Notes: generated from the sequence alone by a model not told the origin. A stretch of DNA of 64,000 bases from Candidatus Amunia macphersoniae (GCA_016464795.1 JAEKNN010000058.1:966-64965), one strand, 5' to 3'. Positions 19,832 through 35,144 are shown, counted from the first letter of the stretch. Translations and numbers: made by a program.

Positions 19832-19906
19832 TCTCTTGGTGCACGGCGGCCCTACTCGGACGGGTGACCAGCTCCCCACTACGCGATGTCTGGTGGCATC
19901 GAACCG

Positions 19907-20360
19907 TCAGGTTTGCGGCTGGGCACGGCACCACTCGCACGCGAACGGCCAGCTGCCGAATCCCGTGTCCGGCGTGATGTGCCCAGCACCCTCGAAGATG
20001 GAGGCGGTGATCCCCAGAGCGTCGCCGTAGAGGGATTGGGCGCCGGCCGGGTTGTACGGGTCGGCGTCCGAGCACGCCATGGCGATCTCCCCGTCCACGC
20101 TGGCTCGCACCGCGTCGGCGTCGAACCTGTCGAGGCGAAACGACGCCCCACCGACCGGTAGGCATTCGGATGCCGGCGGTGAGACGAGCAGCAAGCGGTC
20201 GACCGGGTGGGCCGCCCGGAGTCCGCGCTCGGCGGCACGAAACCAAAGCAGGCACGCCAACGAGTGGCAGACGACGACCCGCTGCTCCCCGTCGAGAGCG
20301 GCGAGCTCTTGGTCGAGCACATCGAGCCACTGCTGCAACTGCGGCGCGTCGGGCTCGGGG
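19907..20360 (-). pseudogene. RBBP9/YdeN-family serine hydrolase (alpha/beta fold), 5'-truncated remnant
   Basis: The C-terminal ~150 aa (…LQQWLDVL…VVCHSLACLLWF…LLLVSPP…AGHITPDTGFGSW) align to the YdeN/RBBP9 family from about residue 38 onward. The N-terminal beta-strand/HG…HW segment is missing, and the reading frame instead runs into the 3' end of the adjacent methyltransferase gene. Confidence 0.5.
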
Positions 20361-20385
20361 AGCGATCGCTGACTCTCTTGTCGGG

Positions 20386-21252
20386 TCAGCCTTTTCTGGC
20401 GCGGAGGTAGGCGACCGCCAGGCGATTTTGGCCAACGCCAGCCTCGACGGACCCACGCAGAGCGCTCAGGAACAGTGACGCCTCCGTGCTCTCCAGCGCC
20501 CCGTCGACAGCCTCCAGCAGGGTGGGGGAAAGCGGATTCGGCGACGAATGAAGCACCTGTTCCCAATCGCGTGGGTGCGGTCGCGTGACCGAGACCTGCA
20601 GGATGAGCTCGACCTCCTCGAACCCGGCGTCCTCGGCAAGCCGCACGAGATCGTTCTCGTCGAAGTCCATCATCGGTCGCAGGTCTGGACCGCAGCGCCG
20701 CTCGATCTCGGCGACCACGCGGTCTCGCAGGCCCGCCACCGCCGAGACATCCCACCCCCAAAACATGCCCGGCGGCTCGGGGAACATGCGACGGTTGATG
20801 GGCTCGAAGATTGACAGGCGACCCCCCGGCCGGAGCACACGAAAGAACTCCGCGAACGCATCGCGCTTTCGGCTCGCGTAGATGAGGACCGATCGGGTCG
20901 TCACCGCGTCGACGCTCTCATCACCGACGCCGGCGAGATCCTCAGCGGAAGCCTGCACGTAGCTGGAGCGATCAGACACACCCATTGCCTCCGCCCGCTC
21001 CTCGCAAAGCCTCAGCAGCTTGCTGGAAACATCGCTGAAGACGACTCGCAGCGCGCCTCTGAGGGCTTCGAACGCTCCGAAACCGATCAGTCCGTCGCCG
21101 CACCCCACGTCGAGCAGAACGTCGTTCGGTCGCAGCGCCGCGCCGCCGAGGACACCGTCGCGATATCGCATCAACTCATCGCGCTGATCAGCCTGGAGCT
21201 CCGACCCTCCTTGACGGCGCAGCAGCAACCAGTCGGACCACGCGTCAGTCAC
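20386..21252 (-). CDS. Class I SAM-dependent methyltransferase
   Basis: VLDVGCGDGLIG (motif I) and LRPGGRLSIFE (motif post-II) are present. The GTG start at 21252 overlaps the GNAT gene TGA (GTGA). Confidence 0.75.
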   Translation of the reverse strand: MTDAWSDWLLLRRQGGSELQADQRDELMRYRDGVLGGAALRPNDVLLDVGCGDGLIGFGAFEALRGALRVVFSDVSSKLLRLCEERAEAMGVSDRSSYVQASAEDLAGVGDESVDAVTTRSVLIYASRKRDAFAEFFRVLRPGGRLSIFEPINRRMFPEPPGMFWGWDVSAVAGLRDRVVAEIERRCGPDLRPMMDFDENDLVRLAEDAGFEEVELILQVSVTRPHPRDWEQVLHSSPNPLSPTLLEAVDGALESTEASLFLSALRGSVEAGVGQNRLAVAYLRARKG

Positions 21253-21824
21253 GGGCGATCCATCCTGTGCACCCAGGCGTGGAGCGCGTAGCGGCGTCCT
21301 TTGTCCTCCACCATCGCCGGTGCCCTCTCCGTGAGTTGAAAGCCTGCACGCCGGGCCACATCGATGCTGGCAAGGTTGTCCAGCTCGGCCTCCACGGTCA
21401 CCGCGTCAAACCCAAGACCGTGGGCATGACGCGTGATCAGTCCAAGAGCTCGCGCGGCGACCCCCCTCCGCCGGTATGCCCGCCCCACCATGTAGCCGAC
21501 GCTGCCGGACTCCAAGTTGAGCATGACCTCGCCCTGGGGCTCTCGGCCGTCAGCTGTGATTGCCAGCTGCAAGCGCCTCCCGGCGACACGAGCCTGTTGT
21601 GCTCGCTCGATGAAATCCCTGGCGGCGGCTGCATCGAAGAGAGATGCCACAGGCAGACGGTAAGCGATCTCAGGATCATCGAACAACGTCATGACCGCGT
21701 CGACGTCCGCGTCCGTCCATTCGCGCAGGATCAGACCGTCTCCGGCGATGGAAACATCCGCACAGCCGTCGCCAGCAGCGGTTGCCCTCCTCACGCAAGC
21801 AGTATCGCGCTTCGTCAACCCCAC
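21249..21824 (-). CDS. GNAT family N-acetyltransferase (RimJ/RimL-like)
   Basis: …MVGRAYRRRGVAARALG… is an acetyl-CoA binding motif A region within a GNAT fold. The exact start is uncertain. Confidence 0.65.
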   Translation of the reverse strand: MGLTKRDTACVRRATAAGDGCADVSIAGDGLILREWTDADVDAVMTLFDDPEIAYRLPVASLFDAAAARDFIERAQQARVAGRRLQLAITADGREPQGEVMLNLESGSVGYMVGRAYRRRGVAARALGLITRHAHGLGFDAVTVEAELDNLASIDVARRAGFQLTERAPAMVEDKGRRYALHAWVHRMDRP

Positions 21825-22275
21825 GAAATTCAGATTGGGGTGGGTGATCGAAGCATGCCTCGCAGCTCTTGAGGAGTGTGGGCGCCGACTTGACGAGCTC
21901 GACCGGCATCCACATCGTTGGGCACATGGCGTCGCACCTGAAAGCGCGGGCTTCCAGTCTCCTGCTTGGCTCTCGCCCGCTGAGCCGCTTCGTGCAGATC
22001 AACCGTCTGGTGATGCTCACGACCGGCGCTGGTTCAGAGTCGAGCCCACCATTCTGGCTGCCGCGCGCCCGATACACGGCCTTCGTCGATTATGACCCTG
22101 AAGGCGCGGTGCGGTCCTTCCGAATCCTCGATGCCCGCAACCGTGGATTTCCCGACTGGAGCTCCATTCCTGCGGAGGTTGGCCAGGTCTCGGCGCCCGA
22201 GGGGTTTTGAGGTCAGTGCACGAGCAGGGATATCTCAACGGCCCTGCATGCCGGCTCTGTTCTGCGGCGCATGCA

Positions 22276-22665
22276 TCACACCAGCCGGAAGCGCTCGCAC
22301 ACCACCAGTGTGTCGCCAGTGGCGCGGTCAGCCGACCAGTATTGCAGCCCGGCAGCTCGCCAATCGGCGACGGTGGTGTAACCCTCGCCTTCATCGATGG
22401 CGAACTGAAGGTCCACATCGTTCAGGGCGACCACCTTCACGTCGATGACCTCGATGGTGCCGAGAGGCTCGCCGGAATACCCAGCGAGGAAGAACCACTC
22501 GCGTGCTCGCGGCAGGGGTTCCGCAGTGAAAGGCTCATATTCCGAACGAAGGCTGGCGGTTGCGGTCTTCTCGCCGCGGAGGACAGCGGCGACCAGCTTC
22601 TTCCGCAGCTCGCTGCGAGGGGCGCCGAGTTCGTATGGACGGACCGGCGGCGAGCGACGAGGCAT
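22276..22665 (-). CDS. ASCH domain protein
   Basis: LRGEKTATASLRSEYE…GEPLGTIEVIDVKVV…EGEGY is the ASCH fold signature. Confidence 0.6.
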   Translation of the reverse strand: MPRRSPPVRPYELGAPRSELRKKLVAAVLRGEKTATASLRSEYEPFTAEPLPRAREWFFLAGYSGEPLGTIEVIDVKVVALNDVDLQFAIDEGEGYTTVADWRAAGLQYWSADRATGDTLVVCERFRLV

Positions 22666-22758
22666 CCCTCAATCATAGGAACCAACATCGGGGCAGCCCG
22701 GCCCAGCCGGCTCCGCAGCACGGACTCCGGTGGCGCCGCCGGGACGCATACTCCGGCC

Positions 22759-23319
22759 ATGGACGACACCGCCGCGAGCCACGAAGGACCTTCGGTGACT
22801 GCGCCGGCGGTGTGGCCGGCGCCGCGTGCTGTCGAGATCCCTCGCGACGCCGACGAGTTGACCATGCTCGAAGCGTATCTGGACCACTACCGCGAAACCT
22901 TCGACCTGAAATGCGCCGGGATTGCTCCTGCCCGGATGTCGGAGCGCAGCTCACCACCGTCGACCATGAGCCTGCACGGCCTGGCGTGACACCTCGCCGG
23001 TGTCGAGCGATGGTGGTTCGCCATCCATTTTGCCGGGCTCGAGCTGCCCCTGCTGTATTACAGCAACGACGACCCTGACCAGGACTTCGAATCCCTTGAC
23101 GGTGATCCGCTGGAGGCTCTCCAGGTGTGGCGCGGTGAATGCGTGCGCTCGCGTCGCATCGTCGATGAGGCGTCGAGCCTCGTCCAACGAGGCGCCGTCG
23201 ATCGCAACGGCGGCTACACGTTGCGCTGGCTGATGCTGCGGATGATCATCGAGTACGCCCAGCACGCCGGACACGCGGACTTCCTGCGGGAGGGCATCGA
23301 CGGAGCAGTGGGCGCCTGA
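22759..23319 (+). pseudogene. DinB/DUF664-family (mycothiol-dependent-enzyme-like) protein with an in-frame TGA stop at 22987-22989
   Basis: One reading frame encodes …LEAYLDHYRETFDLKCAGI…STMSLHGLA*HLAGVERWWF…ALQVWRGECVRSRRIV…LRWLMLRMIIEYAQHAGHADFLREGIDG, a full-length DUF664/DinB_2 protein. The TGA sits where the family has a conserved Arg (CGA>TGA transition). Confidence 0.6.
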
Positions 23320-23350
23320 GCCTCATCCCCCCACCGCCAGGCTGCGCGTT

Positions 23351-24865
23351 CTAGAACGAGCCGCCCGCACCTGCGCCGCCCCCCGCTGCTCCTCCGCCCA
23401 TGCTCGCGGATGACCCGCCGCCGCCGAAACCGCCGTCGACGCCCAGCCAGGCACCGTAGAAGCCCGAATCACCCTGGGTGGGTACCAACCACCGTGGTTG
23501 GATGCCGCGTGCGTCGGCCCGCACCAGGAGGGGGTCGATGTCGCGCGTGCATGCGAGCGCGATCGCCCAGGGCAGGCAGTGCTCCACGTCGATCGCTCTC
23601 GCCACCTGCTCGTCAGGCTTGCCAGCGGCGGCCACGAGCCCACGCCGAAACCCCTCCCAGCGCGCTGCCAGTGCCGCTCCTGTGTCGGTGTTGCGGGAGA
23701 TCGTGGCAGCCACGCCGAACGCGACCACAGCAGACGTGCACGCCACCGCGATGCCGGGCAGCGCCCACGCCTGGTGTCCGATCAGCGCGGCTGCGGCATC
23801 CACGACGACCAGCGCCATCGATATCCACGCCAGCCATCGGAGGGGCGCCGCCTCACGGTCGGCATCGGCGCTGTACAGGCCGCGGTCCCGAAGGTCTGTG
23901 ATCAGCTGGGTGCGAAACGCGGCGAAGTTCCGGCGCAGGCCACCCAGGCGGCTGGTCGGGATGGTTCCGTCCTGTCGACTCGCGTCAGCCAGCCGCAACC
24001 AGACGACGCGCTCCCATGGCGCGTGCGCCTTGGACTCGTCCACGAGACGGACCACGTAATGTTTGTGGTCCGTCGACTCGATGGTGAGCGCGCCTCGCCT
24101 GGCCAGGTCGAACACCGTGGCAAGCACGAGAGATCGCGTGGGATGCCCGTTCCAGACGGCGCCGGCGATGGCGGGCTCGTCGTCAGTTGGTGGTTCGGTC
24201 GTTTCGGTGACCGGCGCGGCCACGCGGTTGCGCCGCAGCCACACTCGTCGTGCCCGTCCAACCACGACGATCAACAGCACCAGGGCCGCGATGTTGAGGG
24301 GGACGGCGGCAACGGCTGCAGCGACCCCTCTCGCCAGGGTGGGTGCCGGTGGACCGGACAGCAGATCCTCGTGCACCGCCGCCAGCGTCGCCGTCAACGC
24401 ACCGCTGAGGTCTCCGCTGAGCAGTCGCGGCGACATGATGTTGTCGTACAGGCGCGACAGCTCGGTCTGAGGCAATCGCCCCGCGGACAACCGGTGACCG
24501 GCGTAGAGGGCGGCGCTGCCGTGTTGGTTGTTGGTGCCTGGTTGAATGTCGACGAGCATCACAAGACCGTCTTGAGCTCCTGTGACGCTCTCGATGTCAG
24601 CACCGTTCATCAGCGCCTCCGCCTCGGCGATCGCCGTTGTGGAGTTGGCAGATTCCACCTGTACCTGCACCAGCACCGGGGTGCCCGCGGCCGCAACCGC
24701 CGTGGCCTGCGCACTGACGTTGTTGAGCTGTGCGCCGGTCAGGGCATGGGCGGCATCTCGAACCTCCGCGTGCGTTCCCAGCGCCAGTGCAGGAATACCC
24801 GTGGCGATGGCCGCCACGGCAGCCAGCGGCAGGGCCATCCGGAGACGCCGCCCGTGTCTGGACAC
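23351..24865 (-). CDS. DUF2207/TPM-like domain membrane protein with a Gly-rich C-terminal tail
   Basis: It has a signal peptide, an N-terminal TPM-like region (LVMLVDIQPGTNNQHGSAALYAG), central TM segments, and a C-terminal …GFGGGGSSASMGGGAAGGGAGAGGSF tail typical of the DUF2207 family. Confidence 0.5.
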   Translation of the reverse strand: MSRHGRRLRMALPLAAVAAIATGIPALALGTHAEVRDAAHALTGAQLNNVSAQATAVAAAGTPVLVQVQVESANSTTAIAEAEALMNGADIESVTGAQDGLVMLVDIQPGTNNQHGSAALYAGHRLSAGRLPQTELSRLYDNIMSPRLLSGDLSGALTATLAAVHEDLLSGPPAPTLARGVAAAVAAVPLNIAALVLLIVVVGRARRVWLRRNRVAAPVTETTEPPTDDEPAIAGAVWNGHPTRSLVLATVFDLARRGALTIESTDHKHYVVRLVDESKAHAPWERVVWLRLADASRQDGTIPTSRLGGLRRNFAAFRTQLITDLRDRGLYSADADREAAPLRWLAWISMALVVVDAAAALIGHQAWALPGIAVACTSAVVAFGVAATISRNTDTGAALAARWEGFRRGLVAAAGKPDEQVARAIDVEHCLPWAIALACTRDIDPLLVRADARGIQPRWLVPTQGDSGFYGAWLGVDGGFGGGGSSASMGGGAAGGGAGAGGSF

Positions 24866-25799
24866 CTGCCTAGCCTAACCGTCTGCGCCCGCGACTTCGA
24901 CCCCCGGGTTACGCCTGCCAGACGGCGTGATCTTGTTGAAAGACCACACGCGCTGACCACCACGGTGACCCAGGAGGAAGCTGACAGACGCTCTCCCCTA
25001 AAACCGAGCGGACCCGTTGACGCAGGACGTGACGGCAGGGGACATGGGCCGCTGGGCCGGTTGTGCCGTCGTCCCGGCTGGGCGGCGGATAGCTGATCAA
25101 CTTGATTAGGACTAGTCATCACGCCGTCCGCAGTGTGCTTCAATGACAGTGTCGGCTTCCATAGAATGGTCGTGGTGCCAAGAGAGTTTCGAGTGCTGTG
25201 GCGGATTTGTCCATCGCCAGAGGAGGACGAGCGGAACGCTCAACGCTTCTTTCGCGAGAAGTTCGCAGCGGAGGGCCTGCCGTCAGATCCGACTGCAACT
25301 GCTGCTGCCAAATCAATTGCTCCGATCGTTCCGTCAACGGGCATTCGCGTGCGAGCTCGGCGAGGGTCCAATCCCTTTCGCAGCAGGCGATTTCAAATCC
25401 AGGTGGATGGCTCTCGGCCGATCAGTCAGCCTTGGGAAGCGACTTCCGTTATCCCCGTCTGTCCTGGTTCACATGTGGTCAAGTGCTACTTCTTAGTTGA
25501 CTTCTTTTTACACGGCGGAGGGTCGGCCGTGGCGGTCGACGTCCCTCCAGGGCAGATTGTGGCAGTGGTGTATATCCCCCCCAAGTGGGGGATGTGGGCG
25601 GGCACCTGTCTGGTGCAAGGGCGAAGCGAGGATCCGTTAGCAGAGGATGCTCAAGATATACCCTGAATCGTCCTGGGTTTCGTGGAACTACGGCCTGTTG
25701 TTCATCAGCTTATGGTGGCCGAACGCGCGGACGGTTCGCAGTCACTGGCAGGCACCTCAAAGCCCAGAATAGGCTCGGACTTTCGGCGGCAGGACCGCC

Positions 25800-26961
25800 T
25801 AGTCGTCTGTAACACTAAAAGCTTGACTGTGAAGTGTCGAGGTGAGATGCTTCACCGAGATGTCGGCGCCGGCTCCTGCACTCCCTGTATCTGCTGAACA
25901 GCGCGCGGTTCTGGAGACGTGGACGCGTAGTCGCGTTCTTTCGCATCGTCAGGTGCAGAGAGCGCAGCTGGTGCTCTTGGCGGCCGACGGCCTGGCCAAT
26001 GAGATGATCGCCGCCCGGCTCGGCATGTCCAAGCCCAGCGTGCTCAAGTGGCGCGCCCGGTTCGCAGCTGATGGGGTCGACGGCCTCGAGGAGGCCCCTG
26101 GACGGGGACGACGACGGACGTACGGACAAGACTTCGTCGAGCGCGTGGTCAGCGCCACCCTGCGCGCACCTGACGATGGCACCACCCACTGGAGCACGCG
26201 TTCATTGTCAGGGCGGGTCGGTGCCAGCCACGCCACCGTGCACCGCATTTGGCAGGACATGGGACTGCAACCGCATCTCACGCGCACCTTCAAGTACAGC
26301 ACCGATCCCCACCTCGACGAGAGGGTCAGCGACGTGGTAGGGCTGTACATGAACCCGCCGGAGAACGCGATCGTGCTTTGCGTCGATGAGAAGTCACAGA
26401 TCCAGGCGCTGGACCGCACCCAGCCGCTCTTGCCGATGAAGCCACATCAGGTGGAACGCCAGACCCACGATTACAAGCGGAACGGCACCACCACTTTGTT
26501 CGCTGCCCTCGATGTGGCCACCGGTGAGGCCACCGGCGCCTGCTACCAGAAGCATCGGGCGACAGAGTTCCTGGCATTCCTAGAGCTCGTCGTGCGCGTC
26601 TATCCGCGGCGGCAACTCCACGTCATCGTTGACAACGCCTCCTCGCACAAGACACCGGAGGTACAGCAGTGGCTGAGTCGGCACCGCCGCGTTCATCTGC
26701 ACTTCACGCCGACCGGGTCGAGCTGGCTCAATCAGGTGGAGACGTGGTTCTCGGTCCTGAGCCGGCGCGCGATTCGGCGCGGCGTGTTCCGGAACTTGAG
26801 CGCGCTCATCGACGCCATCCAACGTTTCCTGGACGGATGGAACGAGCGCTGCAAGCCCTTCGTTTGGGTGAAGTCAGCTGAGCAAATTCTCGCTCAACTC
26901 AACCGTCAACGTTTCCATGAGACGGTCCACTAGCTAGCCTGAGTCCACGGCGCGACGACTG
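25800..26961 (+). mobile_element. IS630-family insertion sequence; boundaries are approximate
   Basis: It contains an intact DDE_3 transposase. The only flanking inverted match found is a 7-bp AGTCGTC next to a TA at 25800-25801, so the terminal inverted repeats are not resolved. Confidence 0.5.
25860..26933 (+). CDS. IS630-family transposase (HTH + DDE_3 endonuclease domain)
   Basis: There is an N-terminal HTH (…ANEMIAARLGMSKPSVLKWRARF) and a DDE_3 catalytic region (LCVDEKSQIQALDRTQP…YKRNGTTTLFAALD…IVDNASSHK…SSWLNQVE). Confidence 0.85.
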   Translation: MSAPAPALPVSAEQRAVLETWTRSRVLSHRQVQRAQLVLLAADGLANEMIAARLGMSKPSVLKWRARFAADGVDGLEEAPGRGRRRTYGQDFVERVVSATLRAPDDGTTHWSTRSLSGRVGASHATVHRIWQDMGLQPHLTRTFKYSTDPHLDERVSDVVGLYMNPPENAIVLCVDEKSQIQALDRTQPLLPMKPHQVERQTHDYKRNGTTTLFAALDVATGEATGACYQKHRATEFLAFLELVVRVYPRRQLHVIVDNASSHKTPEVQQWLSRHRRVHLHFTPTGSSWLNQVETWFSVLSRRAIRRGVFRNLSALIDAIQRFLDGWNERCKPFVWVKSAEQILAQLNRQRFHETVH

Positions 26962-26990
26962 CACGAAGGGAAGGAAAGGATGGGAAACCG

Positions 26991-27299
26991 ATGAGCGAGA
27001 TGGGCCAGCCCGTTCCACCGTTGCCTCCCGAGCCCACCCTTTCCGCCCGCGCCGCCCCGTCCGATGTCATCTTGGAAGGTGACCTTGACCACGGTGACCA
27101 GCGTCATCTTCGTGACCAACCGACGCAGAACTGTCCACACGAGCACGCCCGAGCAACTGGAGACCCAGTCTCGTCAGGCGCTGGTCCACAACCTCTTCTC
27201 GGTTGGTGGGGGTTCCCCTTCGGTTTCATTTGGACGCCGATTGCGTTGGCGAGCAACCGCCGAGCACTGCGTGAGCTCCGCGCAGGGGCCGGCAGGTAG
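26991..27299 (+). CDS. Hypothetical small protein (102 aa)
   Basis: The ATG is preceded by a strong ribosome-binding site (AAGGAAAGGATGGG). A C-terminal hydrophobic segment GWWGFPFGFIWTPIALA is present; there is no recognisable family. Confidence 0.3.
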   Translation: MSEMGQPVPPLPPEPTLSARAAPSDVILEGDLDHGDQRHLRDQPTQNCPHEHARATGDPVSSGAGPQPLLGWWGFPFGFIWTPIALASNRRALRELRAGAGR

Positions 27300-27612
27300 T
27301 TCGGCACGGAGCCGCAATCGCACAGAGAGAAACCCGCCTGGACGCCGCGTCAGTCGACGCTGGCCGACACTGCCGCTGAGGAATACGGTCACGAGCGCAC
27401 CATGCCGAATCTCGCAAACAATGGTGCTCACCCGTGACTGTGAGGGCCGGCAGCCGTTCAGGCGGGGTTCCGGTTGGCAGAATGCTGGCGTGACCGGTGG
27501 TCGGAGTCCCCTGACCGTTGGCTCGGCAGCAGGCAGACCTTCTCATGCGGTCCCGTTCGCAGTTGCAAGGACCGCGGTGATCGCAGCGGGTGAGTCCGGC
27601 GTGGTCGGAACG

Positions 27613-27912
27613 ATGGCTGTTGAGCTCAGAAACCCAAACACCTTCCCGTTCTGGCTCCTGGTGGTCACCGCCTACTGCGTCTTCGTCTTGGCGTTCGCGT
27701 GGGTAGCGGCGCTCATCAAGGAGATCAAACGGGAGACACCGCGCGCGACGCTTCTCGTCCTCGCGGTACTGCCTCCGGTCGGACTTTTGTTGTGGGCCAT
27801 TCAGCTCGACGCTCGTCTCGGATGGCGCTCGGTTGTCACCATTGCATTCGGCGCCACGTTATTGGCGGGGGTGTTCGCCATGTGGGCTGGTGGCGCCATG
27901 TCCGCCGCCTGA
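27613..27912 (+). CDS. Hypothetical small membrane protein (~99 aa, 3 predicted TM helices)
   Basis: MAVELRNPNTFPFWLLVVTAYCVFVLAFAWVAALI… is hydrophobic. The ATG is at 27613; the upstream part of the listed ORF is not protein-like. Confidence 0.4.
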   Translation: MAVELRNPNTFPFWLLVVTAYCVFVLAFAWVAALIKEIKRETPRATLLVLAVLPPVGLLLWAIQLDARLGWRSVVTIAFGATLLAGVFAMWAGGAMSAA

Positions 27913-27925
27913 GCCCCGTTCTCGC

Positions 27926-28420
27926 CTATGGCAGGTTGGCCAGGTCGCTGAGATCGCCCTGGATCTGGGCGTTCGCGGCGTCGAGCGAGTACGACAAGTT
28001 GGATCGCTGGACAGCGTTCGCGTAGTTCGACAGCAGCGAGTCGGCGATCGCCGTCCACTGTGACAGGTGCTGATGGAGCAGTTGATCGATGTCGGCGACG
28101 TTCGCGCTCACCGTGATCGTCTTCTCGCCCGCGAGGAACATCGCGATGGCGTTGTCTCCGCTCTGCTCGTCGGTCATGCACTGAGTCTTGTCGGGTTGCC
28201 CGCAGGCGGTTGTGGCAGCACCCGGCCTGAACTCTGGCGAGCGCAGGTTGGTGGCGACGAGCTGCTTGAGCCTGTCGACAGCGCTTGGAGGGGACGCCGT
28301 CGGAGGCACTGGAGACTGCGAGGCAACGGTTCCGCCACTGGTGGCCGGTGAGCCGCACCCGACAACGTTCCCCAGTGCTGCCGATCCGAGGGCCACCAGG
28401 ACCACGGCGTTCGCCCGCAT
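27926..28420 (-). CDS. Hypothetical lipoprotein
   Basis: The ATG at 28420 encodes MRANAVVLVALGSAALGNVVGCGSP, a signal peptide with a lipobox. Confidence 0.55.
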   Translation of the reverse strand: MRANAVVLVALGSAALGNVVGCGSPATSGGTVASQSPVPPTASPPSAVDRLKQLVATNLRSPEFRPGAATTACGQPDKTQCMTDEQSGDNAIAMFLAGEKTITVSANVADIDQLLHQHLSQWTAIADSLLSNYANAVQRSNLSYSLDAANAQIQGDLSDLANLP

Positions 28421-28639
28421 GGGCCAAGTGTATGGCGGCCGGAGACGGCCGCTCGGCAGCCACCGACGCCGCAACGACCGCGGGGGTCGACAACGTTGAT
28501 TGGGCCTCATGGGAACCTCACACTCAGGGCGTACGGCGTCGAACGCAGTTCTGGCGCGCTACTGGTGGGTTGACTCTTTCATCGTCGTCCACCTCGTGCC
28601 CGCGATTCGTAGGCATTGGCGGCTTCGCGCCCCAAACTA

Positions 28640-28978
28640 TCACGGTGGCGACGACGGACGCCGCTCGTCGAGGAGACCCTCGATCGTGGCCTTCGAGAGC
28701 CCGTGCTTACTCAAAATCTCGGCGGCCGTGGTCGAGCCCTGAGAGGTGAGCGCAAACAGGAAGTGTGCAGAGCTGAGCTCCTCCGCCCACTGATCGGCAA
28801 GGGCGACAGCGATGGAGACCAGCTCCCGCACGAGGCCAGCACGCCGGTCGGCCTCGGGAGCGGCAATGAGTTCGCGCAACGCGTCGGTCGACTGACCGCG
28901 CTCGACGTCTTTTCCCGCGGCCACGTGCCGGCTCCAAGCCGTGGTGGGGAGACGATCGCGCACCTTGTCGACGGTCAC
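28640..28978 (-). CDS. Clp_N (Clp amino-terminal) domain-like protein, single repeat
   Basis: …AEELSSAHFLFALTSQGSTTAAEILSKHGLSKATIEGLLDE resembles a Clp_N repeat. The GTG at 28978 would overlap the TGA of the upstream Clp_N gene once that gene's frameshift is corrected (GTGA). Confidence 0.5.
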   Translation of the reverse strand: MTVDKVRDRLPTTAWSRHVAAGKDVERGQSTDALRELIAAPEADRRAGLVRELVSIAVALADQWAEELSSAHFLFALTSQGSTTAAEILSKHGLSKATIEGLLDERRPSSPP

Positions 28979-29372
28979 GCCGAGTCTGTCAGGACATGTG
29001 CGGCAAGCCCCTCACGTTCGATCAACCAACCGAGCAGGAGGTGCTCGGTGTGCCTACCTCACCATCGCCCCGCCGGCGAGCTTCCTCGAAGGAGAGCTCC
29101 ACGACGACCTTCACCCGCGATGTCGGGATGATCCCCTGCTCACGCTTCTGTGGCGCGTTCCGGCCCAGGAGGGGGTCGATCATCCGGCGCACCCTGTCGA
29201 TATCGACACACATGCCATTCAACACCGTGGCAGCACGGCCGTCGCCCACACGGACCACACCGAGGAGCAGATGCTCGGTGCCGATGTATGTGTGGCGGGC
29301 GCGTTCGGCCTCCTCCTGCGCCAGCGTGAGCGCCTCCTTGGCTCCGTCGGAGAAGCGTCCAAAGGGATGCAC
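28966..29372 (-). pseudogene. Clp_N domain protein (two repeats) carrying a 1-nt insertion around 29050
   Basis: Repeat 1 is intact (FSDGAKEALTLAQEEAERARHTYIGTEHLLLGVV). Repeat 2 switches frame after …ELSFEEARRRGDGEV; removing one base restores GTEHLLLGWLIEREGLAAHVLTDSA*, ending at TGA 28966-28968. The listed ORF ends prematurely at 29022. Confidence 0.6.
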
Positions 29373-29407
29373 GTCAGATCGTCAGTGGGAAGGAGCGCGG
29401 CCGACGC

Positions 29408-29977
29408 CTACCTGGACAACTCCGCGCACACATGGTCCAGGTTCGCCCGCCACACAACGTGGGGCGTGGGTGGCAGGACGTCATCCCAGATCGCGGCGAA
29501 GCTGCCGATCAGCTGGGGGATTCGCGCCGGGCGCGCCATGAACCACCAATGCAGGTGCTCGGTGCCGTCACCCCACCGGCAGACGTGGACGCGGCCGATC
29601 TCCCCGACCGACCGGATCGCGCGCTCGACGCGGACCAGCATCACGCCCAGCTCGGCCGCCAAGTCGTCCGAGAGGTCGCCTGGCTCGGCGTAATGCTCGC
29701 GAGGCTCCAACAGGAGCACCACGGGCAGGCCGCTGGGCTGCGATGGGGCGAAGAGGCGCCATCGCTCATTCGTCCACAGGTACTTCTCGTCGGTCGCCGT
29801 GCAGCTCCTGCAGTCCACCCCGCCTCGTCCCTCGCGAGGAGGATCCGTGTCGGCCGGTGCACGCAGCGGCCGTGGACGCATCTCTCCGCCGAAGGGGAAC
29901 GTGTCCCACTCCCCCACCGGAGGCATGCGCAGACCGTCAAGAACTCGCTCGTAGAGCTGCTCGGGCGTTTCCGGCAT
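29408..29977 (-). CDS. HIT-like superfamily protein with an N-terminal Cys pair and a degenerate histidine triad
   Basis: CRSCTATDEKYLW…GTEHLHWWFMARP sits at the HIT position (HxHxx). It is divergent from and paralogous in layout to the neighbouring canonical HIT gene. Confidence 0.45.
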   Translation of the reverse strand: MPETPEQLYERVLDGLRMPPVGEWDTFPFGGEMRPRPLRAPADTDPPREGRGGVDCRSCTATDEKYLWTNERWRLFAPSQPSGLPVVLLLEPREHYAEPGDLSDDLAAELGVMLVRVERAIRSVGEIGRVHVCRWGDGTEHLHWWFMARPARIPQLIGSFAAIWDDVLPPTPHVVWRANLDHVCAELSR

Positions 29978-30011
29978 GGACGCCTCCGGGTGGGCACTGT
30001 AGGCTGCAACC

Positions 30012-30521
30012 GTGCAGTGGCCTGAGTCGTTTTACCAGAAGCTGCGCGGCGTCGGCTGCACGATGTGCGCGCAGGGGCGCCCGGACGCGACCGACGACGG
30101 CGTTCGTTTCCACGCCGGTGTGGTCACCGACGCGTACCTGCGTCGCGCCAACATCCAGCGCGGCCTCACAGTGGTCATCTGGCGCGGCCGTCACGTTGCC
30201 GAACCAACGGAGTTGCGCGACGACGAGGCAGCCCTGTACTGGCGCGAGGTTCTGATGGTGGGTCGTGCTCTCGAGGAGGCGTTCCGGCCGGTGAAGCTCA
30301 ACTACAACGTGCTGGGCAATTCGCTGCCACACCTGCACACGCACATAGTTCCCCGCTACGCCGACGACCCACGGCCGGGGTGGCCTTTCCCGTTTCCAGA
30401 AGAGGACCCTTCGCCCATTCCGGACGACGCCTTGCGCCGCGACCTCGACGCGCTTCGCGCCGTGCTGGTGCGCTCATCGTCGCCGACCTCTGCGGGTCAG
30501 CGACGATCAGTCAGCGGATGA
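30012..30521 (+). CDS. HIT family hydrolase
   Basis: It carries the canonical histidine triad NSLPHLHTHIVPRY and an N-terminal CTMCAQG. Confidence 0.75.
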   Translation: MQWPESFYQKLRGVGCTMCAQGRPDATDDGVRFHAGVVTDAYLRRANIQRGLTVVIWRGRHVAEPTELRDDEAALYWREVLMVGRALEEAFRPVKLNYNVLGNSLPHLHTHIVPRYADDPRPGWPFPFPEEDPSPIPDDALRRDLDALRAVLVRSSSPTSAGQRRSVSG

Positions 30522-30566
30522 AGCGCGCGGCGCGCTGCTGATCCCGTGCACGAAGTGCTGCGGAGC

Positions 30567-31763
30567 TCACTCCACCAGGCGCTGGCTGAGGAGCTGTTGC
30601 TCGGCCGCGTTCGAGGTGAGAGTGACCGCCCTCCGGTCGGCGTCAGCCGCTTCGCCGTCGCGGCTCAGATCACGCAGGAGCACAGCCCGGGTGGCGTGGA
30701 AGAGGTGGTAGCCGTCGAGAAGGCCGCTCAAGCGATCGACCTCGGTGAGGGCAATCGCAGGCCCATCAACCTGACCCAGCGCGATGGCACGGTTCAAGAG
30801 AACCACCGGTGATGGATCGAGTGCCGCGAGCACGCTGTACAGGCCGACGACTCGGCGCCAGTCGGTCTGCTCCCAGGTGGTCGCCTCGCAGTGCACGGCG
30901 GCGATGGCTGCCTGCACCTGATACGGACCGGGACGCTGCAGCGCGGTGGCACGCCCGAGCAAGCGCACCGCGTCGGTGATCGCCCGGCGATCCCACAGCG
31001 CTCGGTCCTGGTCGGCCAGAAGTACGAGTTGCCCGTGCTCATCCAGGCGCGCCGGCCATCGCGCCAGATGGAGGCGGATCAGAGCGAGCAGCCCCAGCGG
31101 TTCCGGCTCGCCGGGCAGCAGACGCACCAGCAGTCCGGCGAGCCACTCCACGTCCTGGACCAGGTCCTGGCGGGTCGCGTCCTCGCCGCTGGTGGCCAGG
31201 TGGCCTTCGTTGAACACCAGGTAGAGAACCGTGAGCACCTCGCCCAGTCGATCGCCGAGCTCCGCCCCAGCCGGGATTCGGTACGGGATGCCGGCGGCCA
31301 CGATCTTCCGCTTCGCCCGGGTGATGCGCTTGGCCATGGTGGCCTCCGGGACCAGGAAGGCTCGCGCGATCTCGGTGGTGGTCAGCCCCACCACCGCGCG
31401 GAGCGTGAGCGCCACCTGCGCCTCACGCTCCAATGCTGGGTGGCAGCAGGTGAAGATCAGGCGCAACCGGTCGTCGACCTCGCGCCGCGGCACCTCGGGG
31501 ATCGCCGCGACCCTCTGGAGCAGCTCGCGGTACTTCGCCTCCCGTCTCAGCCGGTCGAGACCCTTGCGACGCGCCGCGGTCAGCAACCAGGCTCCGGGAC
31601 GGTCAGGAACGCCGTCGCGGGGCCAGTGCTCCAGGGCTTCGACGAGCGCGTCGGCGACCAGCTCCTCGGCAAGGTCGAAGTCGCCGATGAGGCGAACCAG
31701 GCTCGCGGTGAGCCGGCCCGCCTCTTCCCGGAAGACACGCTCGACCGGGCTCTGCGACGGCAC
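30567..31763 (-). CDS. ECF-type RNA polymerase sigma factor with a long C-terminal extension (~200 aa)
   Basis: The N-terminal ~190 aa have sigma-70 regions 2 and 4 (…LVADALVEALEHW…, …LTTTEIARAFLVPEATMAKRITRAK…), followed by a helical C-terminal domain of the DUF6596-like type. Confidence 0.75.
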   Translation of the reverse strand: MPSQSPVERVFREEAGRLTASLVRLIGDFDLAEELVADALVEALEHWPRDGVPDRPGAWLLTAARRKGLDRLRREAKYRELLQRVAAIPEVPRREVDDRLRLIFTCCHPALEREAQVALTLRAVVGLTTTEIARAFLVPEATMAKRITRAKRKIVAAGIPYRIPAGAELGDRLGEVLTVLYLVFNEGHLATSGEDATRQDLVQDVEWLAGLLVRLLPGEPEPLGLLALIRLHLARWPARLDEHGQLVLLADQDRALWDRRAITDAVRLLGRATALQRPGPYQVQAAIAAVHCEATTWEQTDWRRVVGLYSVLAALDPSPVVLLNRAIALGQVDGPAIALTEVDRLSGLLDGYHLFHATRAVLLRDLSRDGEAADADRRAVTLTSNAAEQQLLSQRLVE

Positions 31764-31769
31764 AGGGAC

Positions 31770-32111
31770 TCAGCGGACCACGACGGGTCGAATCTCCGCA
31801 AATCCGCTCGGCGACGGGAAGGTGCGGACGATCGCGATCGCCTCGTCGAGATCGGCGACATCGAGGATGCCGTATCCGCCGACCACCTCTTTGGCCTCCA
31901 TGAACGGTCCGTCAACAATCGTCGACTGGCCGCCGCGCAGCACCACCGTGGTGGCTGTGTCGGGGTGCTGGAGTTGATGTCCTGCGACGATCTTCCCCTC
32001 AGCGGCAAGGCGTCCCCACCACTGCTGGATCTCGCCGAAGATCCGGTTGCGCTCGTCCTCGGGCGCCTTGTCCTCCCACTCGCTGCGCGACAGCAAGACC
32101 ATGTACTGCAT
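31770..32111 (-). CDS. YciI-like (YCII-related/DGPF) domain protein
   Basis: MQYMVLLSRSE…DGPFMEAKEVVGGYGILDVADLDEAIAI is the YciI fold. GGAGG lies 6 nt upstream of the ATG at 32111, and the gene is directly upstream of the ECF sigma gene. Confidence 0.75.
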   Translation of the reverse strand: MQYMVLLSRSEWEDKAPEDERNRIFGEIQQWWGRLAAEGKIVAGHQLQHPDTATTVVLRGGQSTIVDGPFMEAKEVVGGYGILDVADLDEAIAIVRTFPSPSGFAEIRPVVVR

Positions 32112-32434
32112 CTCGGGGCCTCCAATCGGTTGATCCTGCATCGACGACGAATGGCCGTGCCGGAATTGGACAGGTCGGCTCTGCCTCGACGCTGGCGATT
32201 GAGCTGTCAAGCGTTCCTCACCAGGCGCGCCATTCTCAGCCAAGCGGCCCGCGGGTCCCATCAGTGGCTGCCGGGCTGAGATCGTTGCCCGCACATCGCC
32301 CACCGCCCTGCCACCCCGCGGCAGCCAAACACGTGCCACGCGCACACGGATGTACGCGCCTCCCGGCCTGTCTCGTATCCTGAGGGCGAGCGGCCTGGCC
32401 CACCTGCCCGGCCGGCGTGCTGAGGGCTGATGAG

Positions 32435-33055
32435 ATGACCGACATTGCCGACCCGCTGGTCCGTCGCGCCGGCTTCCACGCCATGACTGAGGGCACTGCC
32501 GATGACTGGCAGGCGATCAGCGCTCATTTCCTCGACCATGGCACGCGCCTGACGGATCGGGTCTTCGACCATCTCCGCCTGTTGAGTGACGACCATGGCG
32601 GCTTCGCCGTGAGCCGGCTCGAACATTCACTGCAGACAGCGACCCGAGCCGCACGCGCCAACCGGGATGACGAGTACGTCGCCTGCGCACTGCTCCACGA
32701 CATCGGCGACACGCTCTGCAGCTACAACCATCCCGATGCCGCGGTCGCCATCCTGCGCCCGTTCGTCTCGGCCGAGAACCTCTGGATGGTGGAGAAGCAC
32801 GGCATCTTCCAGGGATACCACTACTTCCACTTCATCGGCCTGAATCGCGACGCCCGCGAGGCCTATCGCGACCATGAATGCTACGAGCGCACCGTCGAGT
32901 TCTGCGCGGAGTTCGATCAGAACTCGTTCGATCCTGCGTACCCCAGTCTGCCCCTCGAGGAATTCCGCCCGTTGCTGCAGAGATTGTTCACGCGTCCCCA
33001 GCACAGCTACCTGCAGGAGGCGGTCCAGAGGGACCCGGCGGCGGCAAGCAGGTGA
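32435..33055 (+). CDS. HD domain-containing protein (metal-dependent phosphohydrolase/oxygenase superfamily)
   Basis: H…HSLQTA…ALLHDIGD is the HD motif; the protein is ~206 aa. Confidence 0.6.
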   Translation: MTDIADPLVRRAGFHAMTEGTADDWQAISAHFLDHGTRLTDRVFDHLRLLSDDHGGFAVSRLEHSLQTATRAARANRDDEYVACALLHDIGDTLCSYNHPDAAVAILRPFVSAENLWMVEKHGIFQGYHYFHFIGLNRDAREAYRDHECYERTVEFCAEFDQNSFDPAYPSLPLEEFRPLLQRLFTRPQHSYLQEAVQRDPAAASR

Positions 33056-33157
33056 ACCTGCCCGCCCCGCGCACCTTCGAGTCCGTCGACGACCAGCGCT
33101 ACGACCGCACGGTGCGACTGTCGGCCGCGGCCTGACCCTGCCCCGACGAGGACCCCT

Positions 33158-34114
33158 GTGGACGTACTGCGAACTCCGGACGAACGATTCGGCGAGTTGC
33201 CCGGCTACGCATTCCAGCCGCGCTACGTCGAGGTGCCGGCCGGCGACGGCAACAGCATCAGCCTGCGGATGCACTACCTCGACGAGGGGCCGCCTGGCGG
33301 GGAGGTCGTCCTGCTGCTGCACGGAGAGCCGTCCTGGTCGTACCTGTACCGGCGGATGATCCCGGTGCTGGTCGCCGCGGGTCTCCGGGCGGTGGCCGTC
33401 GACCTGGTCGGCTTCGGTCGCAGCGACAAGCCCGCCAGCCGGGCCGACTACACCTACCGGGCGCATGTGGAGTGGACATGGGCAGCGGTCGAGGCGATCG
33501 GGCTGCGCGACATCACCCTGGTGTGCCAGGACTGGGGCGGGCTGATCGGGCTGCGACTGGTCGGGGAGCACCCCGAGCGCTTTGCCCGAGTGGTGGCCGC
33601 GAACACCTTCTTGCCGACCGGGGACCGCCATCCCGGTGACGCCTTCCTCGCCTGGCAACGGTACAGCCAGGAGACACCCGAGTTGCGAGTGGGGCGAATC
33701 GTCAGTGGGGGCTGCGTGACCGACCTCGCCCCCGAGGTGATTGCCGCCTACGACGCACCTTTCCCGGACGACACGTACAAGGCGGGCGCGCGCCAGTTCC
33801 CGCTGCTGGTGCCGACCAGCCCGCACGACCCGGCAGCACCAGCAAACCGAATCGCGTGGGAGTCTCTGCGTCGCTTCGAGCGACCATTCCTGTGCGCCTT
33901 CTCCGACTCCGATGCGATCACCCGAGGAGCCGACACGCTCTTGCGCGCGGAGATTCCGGGCGCGATTGGTCAACCGCACACCACCATCACCGGCGCCGGG
34001 CATTTCCTCCAAGAGGACAAGGGCGAAGATCTCGCCAGAGTCATCGCCGATTTCGTGGCCGCCACTGCAGAGCAGGACTCCCCGTTACCGGCGCCAGCGC
34101 CTGCGAAGCCCTGA
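33158..34114 (+). CDS. Haloalkane dehalogenase (alpha/beta hydrolase, DhlA/DhmA-like)
   Basis: HGEPSWSYLYRRMIP, DWGG (nucleophile elbow, Asp) and a C-terminal catalytic His in GAGHFLQED are present. Confidence 0.8.
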   Translation: MDVLRTPDERFGELPGYAFQPRYVEVPAGDGNSISLRMHYLDEGPPGGEVVLLLHGEPSWSYLYRRMIPVLVAAGLRAVAVDLVGFGRSDKPASRADYTYRAHVEWTWAAVEAIGLRDITLVCQDWGGLIGLRLVGEHPERFARVVAANTFLPTGDRHPGDAFLAWQRYSQETPELRVGRIVSGGCVTDLAPEVIAAYDAPFPDDTYKAGARQFPLLVPTSPHDPAAPANRIAWESLRRFERPFLCAFSDSDAITRGADTLLRAEIPGAIGQPHTTITGAGHFLQEDKGEDLARVIADFVAATAEQDSPLPAPAPAKP

Positions 34115-34514
34115 GCGAGCCGGTCGTCGACGGGGCACCTCCGCCGCCGCCCCGCACCGACGTCACAAACCGCCGACTCCCCCTTGACGCCGTCCGCCAG
34201 ACGGCTATCCTGAGAGACAAGGAACCGACTGCATACGGAGGTCAACTTCATGATGCGTACGGTCTTCGAGCTGTATCGGGCCACTCGAGCCGATCGGTAG
34301 GGCCCGGACCACGGGTCGCACCCCGGCGATCCGCCCGGAAGCGCCACCGTCTGAGACCCTCAGCTCGATGCCTGCAGGGCTCCGGTGATCATTGAAATGA
34401 GCGCAGGGCGCCGCCGACAAGTGCCACCGGGTTCGGGCGGGCCAGCTGGCACCCACGGGTGCCCACCAACACAGCCCGGCCGCACGCCGGGTGCCGACAC
34501 AGTTCGGCAGAACT

Positions 34515-35144
34515 TCAGGGACCGGCCTTTGAGCCGGTCCCTTTCTTTTCGACCCCCAAGCGCGACGAGGAGCGAGCTGCCGATACCGCCGGGTGATCGG
34601 TCCACCAGAAGCGGAGGGGCAGATCGTGAGCGCGGCTGATGCCCACTCGCGGACCGATCGACAGTGGCACTGATGTCGTGGCACGCTCGATGTGTACGCG
34701 GCCGTCGGCGCACAGGTCACTGCCGTTGTCGCTGCGTGTGATCGCCAGTCCCCTGCACAGATTGCCAGGACCGCTGAGCAGTCGCGAGAACTGCACCGAC
34801 GCTCCACGACGCGATCGCACAGCCGGCTCACCGCCTTCCACCACCGCCGCGCGCAGCAGCACGGCCGAGGCGGTTCCGGCGGGAGCGCAGACGACATTGG
34901 CGCAGTGGTGCATGCCGTAGCTGAAGTACACGTACAGCCGGCCGGGCTCGCCGAACATGATCGACGCCCGTGGAGTGGGGCCGCCAAAGGCGTGGGACGC
35001 CGCGTCGTCCAGGCCCAGGTAGGCCTCGACCTCGACGAGACGGGCGCGCACCTCCTCGGGGGTGCCGGCATCGACAACCAGCCGCGCTCCGACCAGGTCG
35101 CGGGCCACCTGATCAGCAGGGCGGCCCAGGAGCTGCCGCGACAC
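34515..35144 (-). CDS. mpg: DNA-3-methyladenine glycosylase (Mpg/AAG family)
   Basis: ARDLVGARLV…EVEAYLG…ASHA…GEPGRLYVYFSYGMHHCANVV match AAG. The GTG at 35144 is preceded by a GAGGGG ribosome-binding site. Confidence 0.85.
   Translation of the reverse strand: MSRQLLGRPADQVARDLVGARLVVDAGTPEEVRARLVEVEAYLGLDDAASHAFGGPTPRASIMFGEPGRLYVYFSYGMHHCANVVCAPAGTASAVLLRAAVVEGGEPAVRSRRGASVQFSRLLSGPGNLCRGLAITRSDNGSDLCADGRVHIERATTSVPLSIGPRVGISRAHDLPLRFWWTDHPAVSAARSSSRLGVEKKGTGSKAGP

Follow-up and report, generated by a model that had tools for sequence, protein, structure and literature searches.

The window analysed here, the whole stretch of 64,000 nucleotides, comes from a metagenome-assembled genome (MAG) of Candidatus Amunia macphersoniae, a member of the uncultured soil phylum Dormibacterota, and carries an accessory island between two runs of backbone genes. 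The left backbone, all on the minus strand, consists by Pfam of ribF, a DHH gene, infB, nusA, rimP, a fused secDF, tgt, queA, ruvB, and yebC, together with ruvA and ruvC, which were assigned by homology to relatives. The right backbone, also on the minus strand, consists of AAG (encoding a 3-methyladenine DNA glycosylase), pheT, pheS, infC, ftsJ, thrS, tRNA-Val, an MFS gene, ksgA, tatD, metG, rsmI, nadE, dinG-exo, rluB, scpB, scpA, a recN-like gene, nadK, and tlyA. The tRNA-Val at 43413-43487, 9 kb from the island, is the sole tRNA in the 64 kb window. A first-pass annotation had described this backbone as minus-strand housekeeping genes in mycobacteria-like synteny. The former holds for every backbone gene with a Pfam match, whereas the latter is wrong, the source being a Dormibacterota genome; the order ruvCAB-queA-tgt-fused secDF-rimP-nusA-infB seen in the window is not known to be the mycobacterial arrangement.

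Gene content and composition of the island

Starting from the yebC side, the island opens with a 5'-truncated gene for a YdeN-like alpha/beta hydrolase of the Ser_hydrolase family (19907-20320, minus strand), which lacks about 30 N-terminal profile positions (1-29) and abuts the stop codon of a class I SAM-dependent methyltransferase of the UbiE/Methyltransf_11 type (MBJ7610176; 20386-21252, minus). These are followed by a GNAT N-acetyltransferase (Acetyltransf_3; 21249-21824, minus), an ASCH-domain protein (22276-22668, minus), a pseudogene of the DinB/mycothiol-S-transferase family (22864-23319, plus) with an in-frame TGA at 22987-22989, and a membrane protein with TPM and DUF2207_C domains (MBJ7610180; 23351-24865, minus). 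The next stretch (24904-25840) has a GC content of 59.5%, gives no coding or frame signal, and has no match in Pfam, NCBIfam, PHROG, or Rfam. It precedes an IS630-family transposase gene (MBJ7610181; 25860-26933, plus), whose product combines a DDE_3 domain (2e-24) with N-terminal HTH domains (HTH_32, HTH_23, and HTH_29). A weak candidate pair of terminal inverted repeats for this gene lies at 25475-25504 and 27063-27092 (30 nt, 73% identity), with no TA duplication evident in the flanks.

Beyond a poorly coding stretch (26934-27912) are a hypothetical protein that carries a lipoprotein-type signal (…LGNVVGC…) but matches no family (27926-28510, minus), a Clp_N-repeat pseudogene (28640-29381, minus) that can be read through only with two frameshifts, a HIT-like protein (29408-29977, minus), and a HIT-family protein with an HLHTH motif (30012-30521, plus). 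The HIT-like assignment is weak (Pfam HIT E = 0.15 over 89 of 98 profile positions; phrog_6748). A minus-strand pair follows, consisting of an ECF sigma factor (MBJ7610188; 30567-31763) with Sigma70_r2, Sigma70_r4_2, and a C-terminal DUF6596 extension (6e-32), of ECF42-like type, and its upstream partner, a YCII-related protein (longest ORF 31770-32345; domain at about 31776-32111). The YCII gene adjoins the sigma factor here, as it does in 65 of 81 related loci, and no other island gene is linked to the pair in the 81 loci. An HD-domain protein (32417-33055, plus) has weak matches to PhnZ-like HD oxygenases.

The last gene (MBJ7610191; 33158-34114, plus) is intact and encodes a predicted haloalkane dehalogenase (Abhydrolase_1). 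Judged from its sequence, the protein has the alpha/beta-hydrolase fold, the Asp-Trp nucleophile motif, and the catalytic His expected of haloalkane dehalogenases (HLDs), and all aligned sequences share QDWGG and GHFLQED without variation. Its relatives, 82% identical in other Dormibacterota and about 80% in Actinomycetota, lie near a carboxyltransferase gene and a YCII-YCII-ECF cluster. As they occur in Dormibacterota as well as Actinomycetota, their distribution would not imply a cross-phylum horizontal origin.

Most of what had been read from the DNA alone stands: the block has genes on both strands, an IS630 transposase, an adjacent ECF sigma/YciI pair, a low-GC non-coding stretch of about 1 kb (24.9-25.8 kb), and three genes with lesions (DinB/mycothiol-S-transferase, Clp_N-repeat, and Ser_hydrolase). 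Nearly all of the enzyme families listed are present as well; for the second of the two HIT proteins (29408-29977) the match is only weak. The GC heterogeneity was found, yet it is small: GC is 66.4% in the island and about 70% in the flanks, and GC3 about 0.80 and 0.87 respectively (Mann-Whitney p = 0.001), a modest shift that overlaps the backbone, as AAG, pheS, and pheT have GC3 values as low as those of the island genes.

Extent of the insertion and its flanks

The gene order pheS-pheT-(AAG)-yebC-ruvCAB is unbroken in about 70 species of Dormibacterota. Across the phylum no more than about 8.5 kb separates yebC from pheT, which is located upstream of it, and no homologue of an island gene occurs within 10 kb of yebC in 80 loci. 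In the seven closest GTDB species (L001-L004, L006, L072) and in L086, which is both the closest metagenomic relative and the closest island-free relative, the distance from the AAG stop to the yebC start is 330-475 bp. In L086 the backbone genes follow the same order as in the window throughout, and 46 nt correspond to window positions 19714-34204. All more distant relatives have a spacer of 25-60 nt at the insertion point; among relatives its length is hypervariable, at 11-59 nt. We placed the breakpoints by blastn and by alignment to L001-L006 and L086, with an uncertainty of about 10 nt: homology to the island-free relatives stops at 19694-19713 on the left and restarts at 34162-34219 on the right, leaving about 14.45 kb of inserted DNA at approximately 19714-34162.

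The first-pass annotation had called the block "lineage-specific or horizontally acquired" and proposed looking at whether yebC and pheST/AAG adjoin each other elsewhere. They do in the relatives, which supports the call. The island is real, but the edges given for it, 19907-35144, are wrong. AAG (34515-35144, minus), which is conserved and adjoins pheT in relatives, belongs with the roughly 350 bp after it to the conserved backbone rather than to the island, and the earlier right edge was therefore about 1 kb too far.

Logan contigs of run SRR31090145, built with an independent assembler, match both junctions at 100% identity, one corresponding to window 19597-27107 (L085) and the other to 32887-37114 (L081). 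The insert lies within a single contig with collinear flanks, and the NCBI protein numbering is continuous, with final digits 174 for YebC, 175-191 for the island, and 192 for AAG. In addition, a sister contig (L171) has the same left junction at 96.6% nucleotide identity; it comes from the same sample as the contig L084 discussed below (SRR22405878), which is not the source sample. As the left junction is common to this sister lineage, the island is clade-specific and not strain-specific. The same gene content and order in close relatives, named earlier as the sign of an ancestral core region, is found only in this trivial form, i.e., in one 96.6% sister at its left junction.

Two promoter-like sites stand back to back around the insertion point. 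One serves yebC-ruvCAB, the other a conserved 15-codon ORF (34253-34300) downstream of pheST-AAG, which is transcribed away from yebC. The yebC site (TAGACT-18-TACAAT; 19658-19687, minus), found once and not at all in shuffled sequences, is intact beside the insertion and conserved in L001-L006 and L086. The other (TTGACG-16-TATCCT, followed by GGAGG and the short ORF; 34184-34300, plus) is likewise conserved in relatives, and the insert has left the two sites and the transcription unit on each flank intact. The island may persist because its insertion point is neutral for the neighbours.

Inverted-repeat ends and history of the island

The ends of the island are imperfect inverted repeats, located on the left at 19714-19799 (ungapped arm 19714-19776; gapped alignment 19689-19799) and on the right at 34065-34151 (ungapped arm 34089-34151; gapped alignment 34065-34179). 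They match over 63 nt ungapped at 76% identity and over about 111 nt with gaps, the arms being 76-80% alike, and their local score of 26 compares with a maximum of 16 among 4971 random window pairs. This is by far the longest inverted repeat of the region, and it is located exactly at both breakpoints. The core common to the two arms occurs as this single pair and is otherwise unique in the 64 kb window; no second copy was found in 80 relatives' loci (1.2 Mb), L084, its source-genome orthologue L169, JGI metagenomes, or IMG/VR. The conserved part of the dehalogenase stops at T303 (nt 34066), the inner edge of the right repeat, which encodes the 15-residue C-terminal tail.

The left end also contains a palindromic unit of 112 nt (19720-19831) with 26-nt arms, 24 of 26 positions complementary, and a 60-nt loop; the portion that recurs at the right end is its first arm together with the loop. 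The palindrome arms carry four mismatches in the sister contig L171, as we read its sequence, and these are not compensatory. About 15 nt at the outer edge of the gapped repeat may derive from the ancestral spacer. No target-site duplication or flanking direct repeats were found in comparison with the empty sites of L001-L006 and L086, no direct 4-mer or longer being shared at the junctions beyond chance. Searches of the island with Pfam, NCBIfam, and PHROGs revealed no integrase and no cognate transposase, only IS630.

Part of the interior is mobile within the clade. A module of about 5 kb, comprising the end of the ASCH gene (its last 30 codons and 66 nt downstream), the DUF2207 gene, which forms the core at 92% nucleotide identity, and a short remnant at 27231-27303 (84%), is present at another chromosomal site in L084 as three collinear segments of 84-92% nucleotide identity, with the homology around DUF2207 ending at 24903. 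L084 is the orthologue (93-95% nucleotide identity) of locus L169 in the source genome, with an 8.4 kb replacement where L169 has 90 nt and the site is empty. The 8.4 kb island lacks inverted-repeat ends and shows no similarity to those of the island in the window; therefore, the moving DUF2207 block does not use the latter. The block comes from the gene pool of the same clade, and the island is still being remodelled.

Taken together, the island is real, fairly ordinary, and partly decayed, and unusual only for its long inverted-repeat ends; its interior is a mosaic of unrelated modules. We consider it probable, with moderate confidence, that the block represents a flexible genomic island confined to the Ca. 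Amunia macphersoniae clade, which entered in a transposon-like manner, was then remodelled, and is passive cargo in function. At its first entry the DNA would have moved as one unit with the inverted repeats as its ends, mobilised in trans or by a transposase that was later lost. Later remodelling may have combined the IS630 insertion, module exchange by recombination within the gene pool of the clade, and decay by mutation, of which the three damaged genes and the coding-free 1 kb stretch would be the marks. The IS630 copy itself would have been carried along or be a decayed element, rather than having brought the island in. Within the passive cargo, the dehalogenase and the small hydrolases and transferases (HIT, HD, GNAT, methyltransferase, and ASCH) may handle small molecules, and the YCII protein and ECF42-like sigma factor may form a self-contained regulatory pair.

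A tentative alternative, which we think possible though unlikely, is stepwise accretion at a permissive spacer through several independent illegitimate or homologous recombination events (gene-cassette replacement of the kind known from flexible genomic islands), with the inverted repeat as a by-product, e.g., an inverted duplication of about 100 nt that arose in one such event, and not a transposon end. The modular interior would fit such a history, as would the exchange by replacement rather than clean insertion between L084 and L169, the limited similarity of the repeat arms, and the hypervariable spacer length among relatives; so would the lack of a target duplication, of a fitting transposase, and of any further repeat copy in the collections searched. 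Against it, the region has a single strong inverted repeat, which sits exactly at both breakpoints, and the conserved dehalogenase coding sequence ends precisely at the inner edge of the repeat, for which a discrete end module is the better fit.

Quite improbable is the remnant of an integrase-mediated integrative element (a genomic island, ICE, or prophage) that has lost its recombinase and attachment repeats through decay. The size, the mixed cargo, the IS inside it, and the pseudogenes are what old elements of this kind typically show, but searches with Pfam, NCBIfam, and PHROGs gave no tyrosine or serine recombinase and no gene for conjugation or of phage type, the insertion is not at a tRNA, and in place of direct repeats the ends are inverted, an arrangement that does not result from site-specific integration. 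The sister lineage's left junction would also be expected of ancestral core DNA, a reading that we find hardly credible, since it requires many independent precise deletions in the roughly 70 species that keep pheT/AAG beside yebC without any island gene within 10 kb. That the source is a MAG might equally suggest chimeric assembly or a binning artefact, which is very improbable given the two junctions recovered independently from SRR31090145, the left junction in a different sample, and collinear flanks within one contig.

Comparison with known systems

Among its components, the dehalogenase is of HLD type (DhaA/DmbA-like), with 80-85% identity to annotated dehalogenases of Nocardia, Mycobacterium, Acidimicrobiales, and other Dormibacterota, and differs from these relatives in its repeat-encoded tail and genomic context. 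A review describes ECF42 sigma factors as having about 200 additional C-terminal residues, rich in TPRs, that regulate via protein interaction (PMC8999054). The island sigma factor likewise has sigma-2 and sigma-4 domains, an extension of this length (DUF6596), and a YCII gene upstream, whereas its best relatives are only 66% identical, and it is ECF42-like by its domains and YCII neighbour. The partner of ECF42 is specifically a DGPF/YCII protein. Similarly, the transposase is 65-70% identical at the nucleotide level to annotated IS630 genes from actinobacterial and proteobacterial plasmids, but, in contrast to IS630/Tc1-mariner insertion sequences, no convincing inverted repeats or TA duplication are evident around it; the island's own ends likewise show no TA duplication.

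As in unit or non-autonomous transposons with passenger genes (Tn3-family derivatives and "transporter" IS), the island has terminal repeats at its breakpoints and cargo between them, the last cargo gene reading into the repeat. In contrast to these elements, it has no cognate transposase, resolvase, or target-site duplication, its arms are only 76-80% identical, and no other copies occur in the collections searched. Its arms would also lack the GGGG…TAAG pattern of Tn3-type ends.

A further close parallel is with flexible genomic islands of bacterial pangenomes, of the additive or replacement kind, which likewise occur in one clade while relatives lack them at the orthologous site, with modest compositional deviation, mixed cargo, IS, and pseudogenes in common, and which also swap modules between related genomes by replacement, as between L084 and L169. 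Of the classical features of genomic islands, it has lineage-restricted presence, a modest composition shift, and a mobility gene (IS630 only); tRNA-adjacent insertion with flanking direct repeats was not found at the island. Instead of lying beside a tRNA with an integrase and direct repeats, this island is inserted where two promoter-like sites diverge, and long imperfect inverted repeats form its ends.

The yebC-AAG interval and its empty counterparts

Because window GC is ~69%, genes were called from GC3 and frame signal together with Pfam. Left of the block the backbone runs on the minus strand in the transcription order yebC, ruvC, ruvA, ruvB, queA, tgt, fused secDF, rimP, nusA, infB, DHH protein and ribF. 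Right of it, also on the minus strand and nearest first, lie AAG (3-methyladenine DNA glycosylase), pheT, pheS, (rplT, rpmI), infC, an ftsJ-like gene, thrS, tRNA-Val, MFS and ksgA, followed further right in the same direction by tatD, metG, rsmI, nadE, dinG with an exonuclease domain, rluB, scpB, scpA, a recN-like gene, nadK and tlyA. The secD and secF genes form a single ORF (11909-14536), and DinG (50962-54261) bears its RNase_T exonuclease domain at the N-terminus. Window 1-5000, outside the island, shows a GC dip to 62% (3-4 kb) and, at 4051-5004 on the plus strand, an ORF with a good coding signal and no Pfam match. The first-pass annotation wrongly called the backbone synteny mycobacteria-like: YebC matches only Candidatus Dormibacterota MAGs, and the source is Candidatus Amunia macphersoniae. 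In the NCBI proteins (MBJ76101xx numbering), RuvC is MBJ7610173 and YebC ends in 174; the island methyltransferase ends in 176, GNAT in 177, DUF2207 in 180, IS630 in 181, sigma in 188 and the dehalogenase in 191; AAG ends in 192.

We searched all window proteins by tblastn against 80 loci around yebC. In the closest species pheS-pheT-AAG lies directly upstream of yebC-ruvCAB, in keeping with the earlier view of an accessory block within a conserved backbone. AAG and yebC are 330-475 bp apart in L001-L004, L006 and L072, pheT lies at most ~8.5 kb from yebC across the phylum, and no homolog of an island protein occurs in any of the 80 loci. The closest island-free metagenomic relative (L086, found via AAG) is 82% identical to the window in amino acids and 76-79% in nucleotides over the backbone and keeps its full gene order from MFS to rimP, with 46 nt replacing 19714-34204; the ruvCAB-queA-tgt-secDF-rimP-nusA-infB order of the 5-19.6 kb backbone is likewise kept there. 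Comparison with empty sites by blastn placed the breakpoints at 19694-19713 and 34162-34219. Thus AAG and ~350 bp downstream of it belong to the backbone, the insert is ~14.45 kb, and the right edge, formerly set at 35144, moves inward. By these alignments the block is an insertion relative to the relatives, and the alternative that it is ancestral core is effectively excluded.

Two stretches of the window, 19597-27107 and 32887-37114, are reproduced at 100% identity by Logan contigs of run SRR31090145, which thereby span both junctions. A sister-lineage contig (L171, run SRR22405878) matches 17009-19984 at 96.6%, a stretch that includes the promoter of yebC and the left repeat and runs into the end of the first island gene. 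That the island is an assembly artefact is effectively excluded.

We also considered a recurrent insertion hotspot and rejected it: larger gaps elsewhere hold pst-phoU-phoRB, or tyrS plus a metabolic gene, without mobile DNA. One Dormibacterota subgroup (L017, L018, L019 and L021, at ~1.6-8.8 kb) carries phoU-pstA-pstC-pstS-phoR-phoB (~7-8 kb) between pheT and AAG, and two loci of more distant lineages (L027 and L035) have tyrS directly upstream of yebC. In four MFD MAG contigs (L009, L011, L020 and L023), the conserved genes pheT, ruvC and ruvB are broken into neighbouring tblastn pieces; these look like assembly indel errors, and frameshifts in such MAGs should therefore not be taken as pseudogenes.

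The insertion point and the inverted-repeat ends

The insert is flanked on the left by a yebC promoter-like site (TAGACT-18-TACAAT, 19687-19658, minus strand) and on the right by a divergent promoter-like site (TTGACG-16-TATCCT, 34184-34211), followed by GGAGG and a 15-codon ORF. Both hexamer pairs are kept in the relatives' empty sites, where a short spacer of variable length (11-59 nt) separates them, and both flanking units are undamaged by the insert.

The 15-codon ORF lies between AAG and yebC, within window 34184-34300 (+), and is transcribed away from yebC; its product in the window is MRTVFELYRATRADR. It occupies the same spacer in L001-L009, L013, L014 and L086, with the strong GGAGG and the promoter-like site and with the consensus MRTV[FW][EQ]x[LF]R[AH][TG]RAEx. 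Its length is constant at 15 codons, with many synonymous differences among 12 loci whose YebC identity falls as low as 75%. The ~215 nt between its stop and that of AAG (34301-34542) are 72-78% identical across species whose AAG proteins are just 64-68% identical, hold no consistently open reading frame across species, and are closed by a terminator-like hairpin at 34517-34542 (+). This stretch has no match in Rfam and could form the 3' portion of a small transcript.

The longest inverted repeat of the 15 kb region pairs 19714-19776 with 34089-34151 (63 nt at 76%), and a gapped version reaches 19689-19799 versus 34179-34065, the outer ~15 nt of which may be ancestral spacer. The repeat scores 26 in local alignment, versus at most 16 for 4971 randomly drawn pairs of 120-nt segments of the window, and a 20-nt core is identical in both arms and has no other copy in the window. 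The conserved sequence of the haloalkane dehalogenase stops at residue 303, exactly at the island-side boundary of the right repeat, which encodes the protein's 15-residue tail and stop codon. At the left end the sequence also folds into a palindromic unit of 112 nt whose arms are 26 nt long; L171 has four mismatches in these arms, none compensatory (counted by hand), which argues against a selected RNA structure. Rfam gave sub-threshold noise only for this hairpin and for the island's low-GC stretch, and a structured RNA at either was rejected.

No target duplication or direct repeats were found at the island ends, and no integrase or second transposase in the island. Its unannotated ORFs gave no recombinase match in PHROGs, NCBIfam or lenient Pfam searches, and no convincing inverted repeats were found for the IS630 transposase. 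Exact-pattern scans for the conserved repeat core found no copy in JGI metagenomes, IMG/VR, the 80 relatives' loci or L084/L169 (a sister-lineage contig and a locus from the source genome's own sample), and the idea that the repeat belongs to a widespread element was rejected. The longer spacer of L006 resembled a solo-repeat 'scar' by eye, a likeness discarded with a Smith-Waterman score inside the null distribution.

Mosaic cargo and its movement

Listed from the yebC side, the cargo starts with a truncated Ser_hydrolase, a SAM methyltransferase and a GNAT acetyltransferase, followed by an ASCH protein, a DinB/MST gene interrupted by an in-frame TGA, and a TPM-DUF2207 membrane protein. A 0.95 kb stretch of 59.5% GC that lacks coding signal separates the DUF2207 gene from an IS630-type transposase, beyond which lies a poorly coding kilobase. 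The remainder comprises a lipoprotein-like ORF, a Clp_N-repeat gene that reads through only with two frameshifts, a weak HIT-like ORF and a HIT protein, then an ECF sigma factor carrying DUF6596, a YCII protein, an HD protein and the haloalkane dehalogenase. The first-pass annotation was thus largely borne out here: genes lie on both strands, three genes carry lesions, the low-GC stretch is non-coding, and Pfam recovered both the IS630 transposase and the ECF sigma/YciI pair. GC is 66.4% versus ~70% in the flanks, and GC3 ~0.80 versus ~0.87 (disregarding two mis-framed backbone genes in the GC3 table). The proposed small-molecule enzymes were likewise found, except that the second of two HIT proteins is only a weak match.

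In 65 of 81 metagenomic loci the YCII and sigma genes recur as a module of two (best identity 66%), with no other island gene linked to them there. Proteins of Nocardia, Mycobacterium, Acidimicrobiales and other Dormibacterota share 80-85% identity with the dehalogenase; these relatives sit in a different gene neighbourhood, whose genes are only 38-55% identical. Cross-phylum transfer, which the similarity to Nocardia and Mycobacterium had prompted us to consider, is only one possible origin of the gene, given these neighbours and its presence in other Dormibacterota (Ca. Aeolococcus, 82%). A known plasmid-borne element was also rejected, as the matches (IS630 transposases and ECF sigma genes) reach just 65-70%.

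The sole close relative of the DUF2207 gene (91% in amino acids) lies on L084, whose remaining genes group with proteins of Ca. Amunia macphersoniae. L084 shares with the island three collinear DNA segments (window 27303-27231, 24903-23350 and 22353-22210) at 84-92%; tblastx between L084 and the window gave high-GC noise only. L084 is the ortholog of L169 (93-95% in nucleotides), and between the AI-2E transporter and SRPBCC genes it carries 8.4 kb (470-8904) where L169 has 90 nt (9464-9554), the site being empty in the source genome. These 8.4 kb encode a PMT_2 glycosyltransferase, HEAT, HTH_3, DUF2207 and MFS proteins and replace the transporter's last codons at the boundary. The interior is thus still moving: a block that measures 5 kb or more lies in the yebC island of one genome and in a different island in a ~94%-identical contig. 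The ends of the L084 island have no inverted repeats and no similarity to those of the window island, and the exchange resembles replacement by recombination, not transposition by the window repeats. L169 also has a PhdYeFM-PIN toxin-antitoxin pair (10985-11684) between MarR and methyltransferase genes, which the L084 gene calls at 11069-11178 lack, a second small presence/absence difference.

Origin and significance

We firmly conclude that this is a flexible genomic island, specific to its clade and seated at a permissive site between genes; its accessory cargo is ordinary and its decay ongoing. Its first arrival would have been by transposon-like entry, favoured because the inverted repeats lie exactly at the breakpoints. 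A serious rival is stepwise accretion of the island, with which the absence of a target duplication, a cognate enzyme and further repeat copies agrees. It is a rather unlikely further possibility that the ~63-111 nt imperfect inverted repeats delimit a previously undescribed non-autonomous Dormibacterota cargo transposon, one that would insert in the short divergent-promoter spacer, carry at least 14 kb of passengers and depend for its mobility on an unrecognised enzyme, encoded either elsewhere or in the island's unannotated ORFs.

To our knowledge, DNA exchange among genomes of Dormibacterota, abundant uncultured soil bacteria, is almost wholly uncharted. The locus offers a cleanly delimited case of recent gene flux in this phylum, with many empty sites, both junctions verified in independent assemblies, one junction common to a sister lineage, and a module at a changed chromosomal position between ~94%-identical contigs. 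It could thus serve as a reference for accessory-gene turnover and in the search for the phylum's mobile elements. Its ends are the unusual feature; the cargo of a dehalogenase, small hydrolases and an ECF42-type regulator is ordinary, the island sigma factor fitting the ECF42 description in its long C-terminal extension.
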